A stretch of 64,000 bases of DNA from Octopus vulgaris. Lineage: Eukaryota. The stretch spans positions 11,904,001 to 11,968,000 of the forward strand of contig OX597832.1 in assembly GCA_951406725.2 (NCBI GenBank), given 5' to 3'. The translations under genes were made by a program, and so were the position numbers. Below the pieces are notes generated by a model, which saw nothing but the letters and a program-made list of their open reading frames with translations, did no database searches and was not told where the DNA came from. This document shows, piece by piece, positions 1 through 46,974 of this stretch; the first letter of the stretch is position 1; every line of letters begins with the position of its first letter.

Positions 1-96
1 ATAATTCCTCATCTCTTAAATATAGAACTGTATGTAACCTTTTCTTGTTAAACAGAGAAATCAGAGAATGCATTATATATATATATATCTCATTCG

Positions 97-618
97 TTGA
101 TTTTGGGTTTGGATGATGATAACAATTGTAACACTTATAATGTGAATAGTAGTATAGGGGTGGTGTCCAATCTTAGATTTCCTCATTCTGTTAATCTTTG
201 TAATTTCAGAAATAAAAATAAATGTGTATTTGGTAATCAATGCCTCAGGAAGGAGGTAGTTTACCAATGCACTGTAGATACACAATTGAGTAGTAGGGTG
301 TATATCGGGGCAACTATGAATAGCATAAAACAAAGATGGAATTATCACAGATATACTTTTAGGAATAAAAATAGAATGTACTCTACAGGGCTAAGTGCAT
401 ACATTTGGGAACTTAAAAGTAAGAACTTAGATTTTAGATTAAACTGGAAAATACTAACTTCAGCACCTGTGTATAATGGAAAAAATAAAAAATGCTCTCT
501 ATGTATTAATGAAATTTTCTTCATTATTAAAGCGGGTCGGCAAATTATTAACAACATTAATGAAAAAAACTTCTTTTGTATTCATAGGCTACCGTTCACC
601 TTTTCTAGATTCAAATAG
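97..618 (+). CDS. GIY-YIG endonuclease domain of a Penelope-like retroelement (Neptune-like type); 5'-truncated, no RT in window
   Basis: Translation shows C-x-x-R-x4-C-x5-C followed by VVY...YIGAT...KQRWNYH...TGLSAYIWELK...WKIL...CSLCINE...IN...E..CIH, the pattern of PLE GIY-YIG domains with a Cys-rich linker. The frame is open from a TTG that abuts a (TA)n tract at 74-88. Confidence 0.88.
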   Translation: MILGLDDDNNCNTYNVNSSIGVVSNLRFPHSVNLCNFRNKNKCVFGNQCLRKEVVYQCTVDTQLSSRVYIGATMNSIKQRWNYHRYTFRNKNRMYSTGLSAYIWELKSKNLDFRLNWKILTSAPVYNGKNKKCSLCINEIFFIIKAGRQIINNINEKNFFCIHRLPFTFSRFK

Positions 619-2335
619 AACTTAGCACTTCCACTATTATTAATTTTTTAATTCCCTTCTTTAACTAAATATACCTGTGGTCTTCTATAATTCTAAAGTA
701 TACAATTTATAAATTTTATAATTTTATAATTTTTATAGCTACATTTGTATAATAATTAATGGATGTGTCTAGTATTATTGGTTTCTTGTTTTTTGTATGT
801 GGGTTTTTGTTTGTTTTTTAAGAGAAATGCAATATGACATAAAATAACATATTCATTTTGGTATTTGCCTTGTAATGTGTGATTTTTGAAGTTTTCCAAT
901 ATTGCATAGTATATTGCATAGTATATATATATATCTTGGTTAGATACCTAGCTCTGGATAATGTAATGATATTGTATAATATGTAATATATGAGAGCCTT
1001 TTGTGAGTTTGGTGGGTTTAGGTTGAGATTATAGGTTTTTTGTATGTGTTTATTTGGAAGGTTTTTATTGTATATTTGGTCTTTTTGTACTCACCTTAAT
1101 TTGTATCTTATGCTATTCACTGATAAACCTTTTTCATTTTTTTCATTTTCTCATTTACATGCATTTTGCTTTATAATTATTACCAGCCTCATATATTTAG
1201 TTTATATCTATAGTCCTCTGGATCTGTACTTTAAACTATCCTTCCATACATATTTACTTTCAACAATATAACATATATATTCACTTTATTTATTTTTTAT
1301 TTATTTTCCATTTTATTGTAATATTATCAATCTTTGCATCTAGTCTTCTATTTATTTATTTATTTGCCTATTTAAGTGTAGATGTTTACATACATATCAA
1401 GTCATCTAATTTGTTACCTATTTATTTTTTTACTTATTTACTTATACTGGGGTAGTTTTATACATACATATCTATCATTTATTTTTATTTAATTTTAATA
1501 ATATATGAATACATATATACTGGTTTGTACTTATAATTATGTGTATAACCGTATTTATTCCTTCGTATTTATTCCTTCTTATTTATTTTATCACTTTTCA
1601 TCTTAAGTCTTTATAATATAATATAAAATTTATTTAAAATTTCTGTGATGTTCTCATAAGCGTTTACATTAGTACTTCCCCTTCTATTCTTTAATGCCTA
1701 AACTGGTATATTATGGCACTATATTTATTAAGTTAATAAGTGACTTATTTATAATATTTAAATTAATATATATTTTATATTTTATATTTTATAATTTAGC
1801 GTACTTAAAATCATAACAAACTTACGATAAATCTAACAACCGTATGTTTACTCTGCAACAAACCGGTGTTATAAATTTTAAGTTACCCATGAAATAATTA
1901 TCTGACTTAGTAACATACTGATATTTAAAAATATATTTATATCTAAATTAAATATTTTATGGAATGCATGGATGGTTCTTTTTTTGTTATTGAGGCACAG
2001 TTATAATTTTGAAGGACTAAATGGTAGCATAGTTGCTTCCCTTTTTTGTTTATCTAAGTGCTAGTTGTTGCTTGTGATTATGTATGTGTATAAGTGTATG
2101 TATATACATATAACTATGTGTGTATGTGCGATTGATCTGTAGATGCGTGTGTGAATATTGGCGTTCCCTGACTAACCAACCGTATAATTTTCTTTTGTGA
2201 TTTAAATTTCAAACCAATAGCCAATCGAATTAATCTAAATTTTCTTTACCTAGTGGTCAGAATTTCTTAACTCATAGTTATTTCGATCTTGAAAGGATGG
2301 ACTTGGTGCTAACTTAACTGTATCTATTTTTATTA

Positions 2336-2381
<46 letters not shown>

Positions 2382-2720
2382 AGTAATTTTTATTAACTTT
2401 TATAGCTTTAGAATTTTATGAACTGTACCATGGTTTTAATTATTATTTTTCATCTCCATATGTGTTAGCCTTTTTTTTATAAAAAAACTATTAGCCAAAT
2501 ATGTATAATATCGGTACTTATTAATATTAATATATACACTGTTATATATTTTGTTTTATTTTGTTCTGTTTACCTTCCTTTTTTGTACAAATGTGTATTA
2601 TATTATATAAGTGTAGCATTATGATGTATAAGTTTTTATATTTTACATTTTTATATTTTTATATTTATATGTATATGATTATATAATATTTTTCACTATT
2701 ATAACAAATTTAATTTAATT

Positions 2721-2828
2721 CTCTGAAGAGGCCGTGGGGCATCCTTGTTAATGCCTCATTTATACCTGCCTTTATGGCTTATAGGTTAAATGAGGTATGA
2801 CTGTCCTCACTGCCGAAACAGCTGTCAG
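2721..2828 (+). ncRNA. Type I hammerhead ribozyme with long stem II
   Basis: CTGAAGA 2723-2729. Stem II closes GGC/GCC and contains ATGCCTCATTTA/TAAATGAGGTAT. GAAA 2815-2818, palindromic stem III ACAGCTGT, GUC site 2824-2826. Stem I is weak (CT/AG, then mismatches). Confidence 0.8.
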
Positions 2829-3101
2829 TTTTGATTTATTTGCATATTATATTTGAAATTTTTTACTTATATCTCTTTATCTTTTTACTATTACTGTATA
2901 TCTCATTTCATTTTATATATTGCCTTTACTCATATGTAATGGTGTATTAAAGTATGGATTGAGTATCATCGGATAGTTGATGTTTTACTGATTTAAGTAT
3001 GTTTCTCCATTCTCTAATTTTGTAGTATATATATATATATATATATATGAGATGTACTTGCATAGCGAGTGACTTGTGTGTGTATATATATATATATATA
3101 A

Positions 3102-44528: not shown

Positions 44529-44733
44529 ATCTTTGTGTGTCTGTGTTTGTCCCCCAACATCGCTTGACAACCGATGCTGTTGTGTTTTCGTCCCCGTAAC
44601 TTAGCGGTTCGGTCAAAGAGACCGATAGAATAAGTACTATGCTTACAAAGAGTAAGCCCTCGGGTCGATTTGCTCGACTAAAGGCGGTGCTCCAGCATGG
44701 CCACTGTCAAAGGACTGAAACAAGTAAAAGAGA
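43708..44733 (+). mobile_element. Family B SINE split at its internal (TA)n by an inserted element (~43911-44460)
   Basis: 5' half 43708-43864 and 3' domain 44540-44733 match the intact copy at 28072-28480. Confidence 0.8.
44011..44049 (-). ncRNA. Minimal hammerhead-like motif with variant core CCGACGA
   Basis: Minus strand: GTTT-CCGACGA-A-GAGC-TCT-GCCC-GAAA-C-AGAC-GTT|AAAC. One A-C mismatch in stem II. Confidence 0.6.
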
Positions 44734-45431
44734 GATAAAGGGTATGCATGAAATTGCATTAACTAATAAATTTGTTTCTGGAGATAAAGGATAATGCGAA
44801 GTAGACACGAGAGATACACTGACCAGTTTGATTCAAGCCAACAAAGAAGCTTCTCTAGGAAGCTGAAAATAACAGCTACATCTCATTTACACAACATTGT
44901 AGAGTGTTTTGTTGCTTTCGGAATTGTTCTCCTCAGCTCCTCCAGCTATTTGGAGCAGAAAACTTTGAAGTTACTACTATATGTGTATCAGCTGCGGCTG
45001 ATGTGAAGGTAGTAATGCAACATATGGTACATACTGTGCTGTGTAATACATGCATTACACATCAAGTCATACAGACGTTTGCTTTCAGCACATGACGTAC
45101 GTCACTGTTGCGTATTTGATTCGTTGTTTCGACATACTTCTTGTATATCTACAGAGACGTGACTCGTCTATATGACATCAACTGGTACTCAGGACATTCT
45201 CATAGTGTCCTGAGATTTTCATCTAGCGAAAGGAGAACAACGTCCAATGTCATTCTCATTGAGTCTGATATTTTGTCTCTTTTATTACGGGATTAGCTAT
45301 TACGCAGGGTTGTAAAGTAGTAACTCATCTTCTCTGTCCGTTCCACCCCAGTTTTAAGCAATTTAAAGTTACATAAAATCAAAGGAAATAATTTTAATAA
45401 TACTTAAATAATATTAGAAATATTGAATTTC

Positions 45432-45734
45432 TAAATGTCTCAACGAGACATGAGCGGTGGAGGAGCGATAGAGTGGTTGTATACAGTCAACATAACGTGA
45501 CAGTCCCGTAAAGGGAATTATACCACCGCTATTTAGCCCCAGGAAGCATCGGCGCTTCCTGTCGGATTTGACACATTTCCTGTGTCCTTATATTTGCGAA
45601 GGGGAGGCAAGCACCCCCACCAGCTAGGATTAGCACCTGAAGACATGCATGTTTCTGGGTCTTGCCCGTCATCAGTCCAGGGTAGTAAGTCCTGCTAGTT
45701 GAGATACTTGCCAAGCCCTCGCAAATATATATAT
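45432..45734 (-). mobile_element. ~300-bp non-coding HHR-bearing element flanked by a ~28-bp diverged direct repeat
   Basis: Flanks TTAAATAATATTAGAAATATTGAATTTC (45404-45431) and TTAAATAATATTTATAAATGTGAATTTC (45735-45762). The empty-site version is at 42343-42477. Confidence 0.7.
45589..45729 (-). ncRNA. Type I hammerhead ribozyme capping a ~140-nt rod-like hairpin
   Basis: Minus strand: CCTGGA-CTGATGA-C-GGG-CAAGA-CCC-A-GAAA-CATGCATG-TC|TTCAGG. Stem I extends through AGGA/TCCT, GGCAAGTATCTC/GGGGTGCTTGCC and TATATTTGCGAGGG/CCTTCGCAAATATA. Confidence 0.85.
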
Positions 45735-46974
45735 TTAAATAATATTTATAAATGTGAATTTCAGTAGGACCCCAAGGAAACGAAATTCTCACACATTTCC
45801 TTGTCTTTCATTGTGGTTTGTCATATGTGGAGGGATCGTTGTTTGCTAAGTTGCCCCTTAGTCTCCGACATAATGCAGTCATTACAGATTTTGTATTTCT
45901 TCATTGTAACAAAGCGGAGAATGGATGCTCTGGATCTTTCCAAGAAAAAGAACCCTCTGTTTCCATTTGATCACTCTCCCTGTCGGTCCTTCGAACCCAG
46001 GAAAAGATGTACACTTCGAATTATCCGCACTAGTAGTACACTGAAAAAAGCAATGCCCATGGCCTACTGTTACCATTGCACCCTGTACTGTTTTTCTTCT
46101 TCGATTTTCTATACTACTCTGATGGATAATTTCGCAAATGACCCACGATTTGTATATGTAGCAGCAGGATTTTTCTTTAGCATCCGAATAGCATTGTAAT
46201 ATTTCACTTATCATTCGTACGAGTTTGACTTCTATATTTGTTCTGTCTCAAGTCTCCTGTACACTTAAAAGGTACATAAGTGTAATAGGAATTCAGGAAA
46301 AGCAATCTGGTCAGTCTTATAGACAATATAATTGTACGTAGGCAAAGGTTGTCTCCAACTGATCTTTCGTGAGCATATGTTTAGATCCTGTAATTTTGCA
46401 AATCACAAATATATAAGTTTCTTATAAGTTTGTGATGACATCAGGTAACGTTTGTATCGCATAACAGTTGCTCTTTCAGCTGCGTTGTATGTGTTTAAGT
46501 TCCACCCACGACATAATTTGCAAAGGATAAACTTTCCTTTACGTGAAATGCTGACATAAAATATGACAAATCATTTTCTTTTTGTAACATTGGGAATATG
46601 AGATTTGTGGTTGTTAGTAAACACGTCGCTAGAATTTTCCGCATTAGGGTAATTTTTAAAAGAAAAGAGCAAAAATAATTTTTTATTATATAAAGATAAA
46701 GTTTTTACTGACTTTCTATATTTTAAACACCCGTGAATTACCTTAAACTTCAATACCTTATTTTAGATTTATGTGACCCCACAGCATAGCCAATTGTGGA
46801 TGAGTGTAGGCAAGAAAAAAAACAGACAAGACTTTTTCATTTCTTTTGAAGTCTACATACACAGATGTTCATGTTTATGTCTAAGAAATTTCATGAAGTT
46901 TCATTTGGTAATATATTAAAATCTGTAAAATCGATGACAAAAAAATGTGTGTTCAAGTCAGTACGTACGTATCA

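Follow-up and report, generated by a model that had tools for sequence, protein, structure and literature searches.

A putative hammerhead retrozyme family in the octopus genome with Penelope-like insertion anatomy and a fixed place for LINE insertion

The element described here lies in a 64,000-nucleotide stretch of the Octopus vulgaris genome (contig OX597832.1; "the window" refers to the whole stretch analysed) and is, with good probability, a lone, 5′-truncated member of a non-autonomous family of hammerhead retrozymes; the reverse transcriptase (RT) and endonuclease of Penelope-like elements (PLEs) likely copied it. By all sequence criteria this is a new family of non-LTR hammerhead retrozymes, for which cleavage and circles are predicted. 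A clean record of PLE-type insertion, a palindrome kept through sequence change, and a fixed landing site for LINEs set it above the routine.

The window copy and its family

The copy was delimited by blastn against a full genomic monomer, to which it is 93% identical. It is a solitary monomer with a single ribozyme, lacks the first 28 bases of the family monomer, and is an ordinary, probably inactive member of the family. Its extent and flanks are as follows:

45413 to 45737, minus strand: 5′-truncated retrozyme copy, monomer positions 29 to 355
45404 to 45415: 12-bp target-site duplication, 3′ side, three bases of it common with the element end
45735 to 45746: 12-bp target-site duplication, 5′ side, three bases of it common with the element

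The boundaries given in an earlier note on this DNA (45432 to 45734) were too short, since the element reaches 45413. The direct repeat of about 28 bp that the note saw flanking the element (ca. 28 to 32 bp, 78% identical) is not a duplication of such a size; it consists of the exact 12-bp duplication plus the terminal hairpin of the family (45414 to 45434). Beyond the 5′ duplication, the flank at 45747 to 45762 resembles this terminal hairpin, and similar flanks were seen by eye at two other loci (L008 and L005). In a post hoc count, 18 of 1,086 AT-rich 30-mers scored equally well, and the likeness may reflect chance, a decayed partial tandem, or microhomology joining. A further dispersed and abundant repeat is found in the window at 44545 to 44720, beside a CA/TA microsatellite and shared with many loci; it is a putative SINE.

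With the window element as the query, the genome (2.8 Gb, 227 contigs) gave 2,293 first-look candidates, and the 40 that were scored were 88 to 95% identical. Thirty loci were fetched in this first search, one being the window and two a single locus, which gave 29 non-redundant loci. The two halves of the element (45432 to 45588 and the hairpin half) might have belonged to separate repeats, but both fell within a single match at all 30 fetched loci and are one repeat. Genome-wide, it forms a dispersed, high-copy family with head-to-tail junctions.

The monomer measures 351 to 355 bp (353 and 360 bp in related subfamilies), with a GC content of 0.46 and open reading frames of at most 49 codons. 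No tRNA head was present in the six loci examined, and the unit ends in neither an A-tail nor a simple-repeat tail, so that the tRNA-like head and the A-rich or simple-repeat tail of tRNA-derived SINEs are both absent. The first impression of a structured, noncoding, retrozyme-like retroelement was therefore well founded, given the unit length, the tandems, the duplications of 9 to 14 bp, the conserved core, the short frames, and the missing tRNA head. One subfamily with a 360-bp unit is represented by 2.2 copies matching at 99% (L195, 2592 to 3384), a recent insertion.

Non-LTR retrozymes of metazoans have been described with 350 to 390 bp in mussel and 330/350 bp in axolotl (Cervera and de la Pena 2020, PMC7229834). 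The octopus family is like them in unit size, type I hammerhead, short palindromic helix III, GC content below 50%, absence of an ORF, duplications of more than 4 bp, self-paired fold, and tandem copies. It differs in being made up mostly of dispersed insertions of 1.1 to 2.2 units, and in a rod of ca. 55 bp below stem I together with six hairpins. Unlike them, it is known from sequence alone. Literature searches combining octopus with retrozyme or hammerhead found no paper on the family and no report from octopods, although Repbase or paper supplements could list it.

The hammerhead and its conserved fold

A relaxed motif scan found the hammerhead of the copy to be the only canonical one in the window. 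The structural features of the copy, from the ribozyme to the 3′ end, are listed below:

45636 to 45681, minus strand: type I hammerhead (stem I, 45681 to 45676 with 45641 to 45636; core CUGAUGA, 45675 to 45669; stem II and loop II, 45668 to 45656; GAAA, 45655 to 45652)
45643 to 45652, minus strand: palindromic helix III, predicted dimer interface (duplex energy; self-complementary in all subfamilies)
45641 to 45642, minus strand: predicted cleavage site, 3′ of C17 (hammerhead consensus)
45682 to 45729, minus strand: 5′ arm of the rod extending stem I, with a TATA-like run at its start (fold; covariation in helices 2 and 3)
45589 to 45635, minus strand: 3′ arm of the rod (fold and covariation)
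45682 to 45684, minus strand: UAC, one side of the internal loop in stem I, predicted to contact loop II (sequence; largely retained across family A variants)
45570 to 45586, minus strand: conserved 6-bp hairpin (97.8% of cells paired)
45540 to 45561, minus strand: conserved 8-bp hairpin (three of seven pairs changed on both sides)
45454 to 45529, minus strand: stem around two small hairpins, one of them at 45484 to 45503 (four of seven pairs of helix 11 with changes in both strands; in helix 10, pairing of just 76%)
45461 to 45475, minus strand: site of the second common 3′ end of the family, monomer ca. 295 to 305, unused in the window copy (18 of 55 loci end there)
45435 to 45451, minus strand: 7-bp hairpin ahead of the end (fold and covariation)
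45414 to 45434, minus strand: terminal hairpin, main 3′ end at monomer 355 (30 of 55 loci end there)

What had been read by eye from the letters holds in this model: the 10-nt palindrome of stem III (45652 to 45643), the C·A mismatch at the base of stem II (a stem of 3 bp), the internal loop in stem I (after 6 bp of stem), and the two small hairpins at 45570 to 45586 and 45540 to 45561. The long arms, running from 45729 to 45589, had been said to favour the minus strand, in agreement with fold z scores of −6.33 (minus) and −4.66 (plus); none of 100 shuffles folded as well on either strand. With C17 at 45642, the hammerhead consensus predicts a cut at 45642/45641. By analogy with type I hammerhead structure, loop II is predicted to contact the UAC of the stem I internal loop. 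The element had no match in Rfam at the gathering level or at E values up to 10.

The core is 3.7-fold better conserved than the rest (10 of 600 cells changed, compared with 700 of 11,447 outside it), as counted in 50 family A copies that were found by similarity, and it is intact in 43 of these 50. The diverged subfamilies have the whole layout in common. Across 22 variants, 91.9% of the cells in the hammerhead stems are paired (19 to 46% in slid controls) and 11 of 13 pairs changed on both sides; these counts keep two of the 22 rows that are misaligned in stem II. RNAalifold, run on 15 monomers, recovered the rod, stems I and II, and three 3′ hairpins, with double changes in 25 of 49 pairs. 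A hand-drawn structure of 101 pairs was 87.6% paired, compared to 34 to 42% when slid, but it was drawn from family A folds and is biased toward family A. One permuted row (L132) was kept in the counts from the third alignment, whereas the second alignment, some rows of which were wrongly chosen, contributed to none of the counts. Several one-sided changes yield G-U pairs on the minus strand.

In all subfamilies helix III can pair with itself, and it does so in at least seven different sequences; this retention through sequence change points to cleavage as a dimer, for which it would be natural evidence. Alone, helix III forms no hairpin (pairing probability of 0.00), while as a duplex it reaches −13.3 kcal/mol, and the active hammerhead fold of a lone copy lies 4.9 kcal/mol above the minimum-energy fold; a helix absent alone, stable as a duplex, and a costly active monomer fit the dimer cleavage described for animal hammerheads (PMC4209133; PMC7229834). 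In 14 of 22 variants the pair at the base of stem II does not form, which may lower ribozyme activity. The axolotl HHR_Amex2 resembles the octopus hammerhead in this respect (U·U there, C·A here) and is described as cleaving weakly as a monomer (PMC7229834).

Of 24 runs available as assembled contigs (all of guessed or unknown type), four have contigs that cover the unit, with a summed depth at least 10-fold higher 3′ of the cut than 5′. We rejected them as evidence of cleavage on three grounds: subfamilies differ less from one another in the 3′ half, true ends are not revealed by contigs, and a DNA control was missing. Contig ends at 1600/1601 of one locus (L003) were also discarded as a signal, a common indel being found there, 7 nt from the predicted cut.

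Insertion anatomy and the likely mobiliser

How animal retrozymes move is treated as an open question in the accounts we cite (PMC7229834, PMC7761336, 10.64898/2026.07.22.740005). Since the octopus family is dispersed, each copy records one insertion, and we compared 55 non-redundant loci (60 fetched less five duplicates, 30 found with the junction as the query). A head-to-tail junction was present in 18 of the 29 loci from the first search and in 42 of the 55 once the junction-selected loci were added. In these tandems, a 5′-truncated piece ending at 355 continues into position 1; the junction is fixed while the truncation varies, and the template was thus continuous across the junction (a circle or a multimer). 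The 3′ ends fall into two groups ca. 55 nt apart, 30 at 341 to 355 and 18 at 294 to 306, with seven elsewhere, six of them at a LINE. An inverted 5′ piece was found in 13 of the 55 loci, the 3′ flanks are 80% AT, and duplications of 9 to 14 bp that are not microsatellite appear in at least 13 loci. The longest array spanned ca. 2.2 units; copies were mostly dispersed, and no long tandem arrays were seen among the loci examined.

Units of a tandem were 93.2% identical within a locus and 92.2% between loci, the value within being higher in 16 of 24 cases and some units being less alike. This narrow difference allows a single circular template but does not demonstrate it. Inverted pieces were more alike within a locus than between loci in all 14 comparisons.

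The insertion mode of the family is thus Penelope-like, with partial tandems, inverted 5′ pieces, two 3′ ends, and AT-rich targets. PLE insertions have been described with partial tandems, an inverted 5′-truncated copy, a tail of 30 to 40 bp, and AT-rich targets (10.1101/2021.04.23.441226), and the two 3′ ends recall the two internal RT starts reported for a lizard PLE, whose ribozyme is described as dispensable for insertion in vitro (PMC11167929). The family shares with PLE pseudo-LTRs the partial tandems, inverted 5′-truncated pieces, two 3′ ends, and AT-rich and microsatellite targets (PMC4209133; PMC11167929; 10.1101/2021.04.23.441226; 10.64898/2026.07.22.740005), as well as a hammerhead with a palindromic helix III and, in some subfamilies, the U3-A8 core of the PLEs of this genome. 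It differs from them in a unit without a reading frame, a canonical rather than minimal hammerhead, the lack of homology to the three PLE families compared, and two ends that lie ca. 55 nt apart instead of a 30- to 40-bp tail.

PLEs with RT and GIY-YIG domains are abundant in the genome (ca. 20,000 candidates per query), some with open frames of 784 codons. None of the three PLE families compared has a terminal repeat homologous to the unit, each carrying a hammerhead or hammerhead-like motif of its own, different from that of the unit, and no RT-GIY-YIG frame stood in register with the unit in the 55 loci, among the matches listed. A PLE is the likely mobiliser as judged from insertion anatomy only.

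The conserved, structured unit of ca. 350 bp carries its type I hammerhead on the minus strand. Tandem loci would be transcribed from that strand, and two hammerheads would pair through helix III and cut 3′ of C17. The unit-length RNA so released would be circularised by a host ligase, as in coral, mussel, and axolotl retrozymes. A PLE protein may then nick AT-rich DNA and start reverse transcription inside the RNA, at monomer ca. 300 or 355; on a circular or multimeric template, synthesis would pass over the fixed 355-to-1 junction before stopping early or inverting. The products observed are partial tandems, inverted 5′ pieces, and duplications of 9 to 14 bp. The window copy, with one ribozyme and without its first 28 bases, would be a dead end for the making of unit-length RNA. 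The two fixed 3′ ends, the fixed junction, the inversions, and the duplications give direct predictions for a PLE protein. Evidence against this scheme comes from the dispensable ribozyme of the lizard PLE and from a survey of vertebrates in which only one of nine predicted retrozyme dimers was reported to cleave in vitro (10.64898/2026.07.22.740005).

The window also holds the 3′ part of a young, abundant PLE-like element (1 to 3020, plus strand; frame, 52 to 618), for which all 150 scored matches were 90 to 100% identical. Its frame had no match in Pfam; its motifs suggest a putative endonuclease. At ca. 2717 to 2830, this element carries a second hammerhead, whose stem II has a long insert and whose helix III is likewise palindromic. 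Two abundant PLE families of the genome (L245, L246, L250, and L251) carry hammerheads in which the core is U3-A8 and helix III is palindromic; GCAA replaces GAAA in one of them, and the U3-A8 core is also found in the retrozyme subfamilies at L103 and L121. Three of 60 loci from the protein search contained a retrozyme as well.

LINEs before the hammerhead and rival readings

In at least seven loci, recovered by junction and element searches, the monomer was interrupted at positions 75 to 90 by a common sequence. It is an element of 1.69 kb whose only frame encodes a zinc knuckle and whose 3′ tail is fixed. The window had no LINE match, and its copy is an empty site:

45682 to 45705, minus strand: stretch homologous to the LINE insertion site, monomer ca. 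61 to 84, empty here (junctions at other loci)

Among the best 30 loci for the LINE tail, 25 adjoin a retrozyme target and five lie elsewhere. Genome-wide, the exact 15-base tail occurs 223 times, and in 110 cases a hammerhead core follows within 12 to 40 nt (none with a reversed-pattern control; ca. 8 expected by chance in a hand estimate). Composites also move, and these 110 are therefore not all independent insertions. Their share lies above the 20% of copies in one kind of target by which PMC4494074 defines target-specific LINEs, some of the tails being in carried composites. APE-RT LINEs and several ORF1-only derivatives insert in this interval, on the same strand as the hammerhead and in several subfamilies with different target sequences; ORF1 variants 28 to 89% identical use the one place. 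A TATA-like run is found some 20 to 40 nt before the site.

Most occupants are ORF1-only, and a 5.5-kb element with APE and RT inserts at the same place. Its copy at L297 matched PF03372, PF00078, and PF00098, i.e., APE endonuclease and RT in ORF2, next to a zinc-knuckle ORF1 to which the ORF1-only frame is 31% identical. At L307 (3511 to 8979, minus orientation) and L297, this ORF1-plus-ORF2 LINE stands in tandem with an ORF1-only element (open frame of 444 codons) at the target of family B, and each junction shows an identical 14-bp stretch of target. The 5.5-kb LINE is a candidate for the autonomous partner of the ORF1-only LINE, with which it has only the last tail bases in common. At L290, L292, L303, and L067, one retrozyme site holds two to three or more ORF1-only LINEs in a tandem array, with a target copy between each. 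We rejected two other partners: the ORF2 element of L135, which has its own tail and is merely in tandem, with 27 of its best 30 copies in a SINE, and a second abundant ORF2 family, which shared no tail in 30 of 30 loci. The copies in the SINE (L216 to L244) occupy one fixed site of this abundant repeat in 27 of the best 30 loci.

Tx1-clade LINEs are known to target other repeats, namely Tx1 in Tx1D, Tx1-Mar in Mariner-N4, and Keno in U2 genes (PMC4494074), and HAL1 half-L1 elements are known examples of ORF1-only derivatives (PMC5753468). The octopus LINEs resemble both by domains and targeting (APE-RT, zinc-knuckle ORF1, a fixed place in another repeat, tandem pile-up, and ORF1-only derivatives). 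They differ in that the target is a ribozyme-bearing retroelement with several subfamilies of differing target sequence, that most occupants are ORF1-only, and that composites are remobilised with the ends of the host. No named Tx1 sequence appeared among the at least 120 listed homologues of the LINE ORF2, of which the closest named LINE came from Argonauta, and literature searches found no paper on a retrozyme as a LINE target. Here a retrotransposon follows its target across sequence change, a setting that can separate choice by the endonuclease from RNA-guided or promoter-guided choice.

The close association raises the question of whether the unit is itself the terminal part of an ORF1-encoding LINE, with the monomers as deletion products of a composite. 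The 25 of 30 tail loci that adjoin a retrozyme target would suit this, as would the composites in which 5′-truncated or inverted LINE pieces with the downstream monomer alone spread as one with retrozyme-type ends (L074, L076, and L084). However, it is largely refuted by the duplications of 13 to 24 bp that flank full-length LINE copies and match the local subfamily on both sides, and we regard it as very improbable. A 5′-truncated LINE sits inside a full monomer at L078, off-target LINE copies have duplications of their own (L072 and L083), upstream monomers at one locus lack the LINE (L066), LINEs of widely differing ORF1 use the same site, and the 223 tails contrast with more than 2,000 candidates for a single retrozyme subfamily.

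Two further readings concern the replication of the unit. Animal retrozymes have been argued to derive from, and to be homologous to, the terminal repeats of PLEs (10.64898/2026.07.22.740005), and all insertion signatures of the octopus family are PLE-like, as would be expected if the unit were only the solo pseudo-LTR of an autonomous PLE left after heavy 5′ truncation, with no independent replicon. Yet upstream of position 1 we found the unit's own end or flank and no common PLE frame (55 loci, among the matches listed), two copies are found as insertions within or next to PLE-like reading frames (L055 and L135), and the hammerheads of the three PLE families are different and without homology to the unit; we hold this origin to be quite unlikely. 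We would also give little weight to a structured, SINE-like element with linear RNA from tandem loci, whose hammerhead would do no more than trim the 5′ end, or would be a relic, without any circle being made. The within-locus identity does not single out one template, the C·A mismatch and weak helix III may slow cleavage, and the TATA-like run would also agree with such an element, but not the better-conserved core, the palindrome retained as the sequence changed (of use only where two ribozymes meet), or the absence of a tRNA head and of any A-tail or simple-repeat tail.

Under the preferred reading, a non-autonomous retrozyme copied by PLE proteins, it is possible, although we put it forward only tentatively, that the retrozyme offers a whole LINE lineage both a place to land and a chassis for RNA processing. 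Full APE-RT elements, like the ORF1-only ones, would insert at a structurally fixed place before the hammerhead across differing subfamilies and use the retrozyme promoter. The flanking ribozymes would cut the ends of their RNA, and the LINEs would ride the Penelope-driven route, the site being partly chosen by pairing of read-through RNA. In that case, PLE, ribozyme circle, and LINE would form three tiers of a parasitism that runs both ways.

A different repeat with a hammerhead-like core and a long stem II (L253 and L254) also held copies of the ORF2 family and of the ORF1-only LINE at nearly one place.
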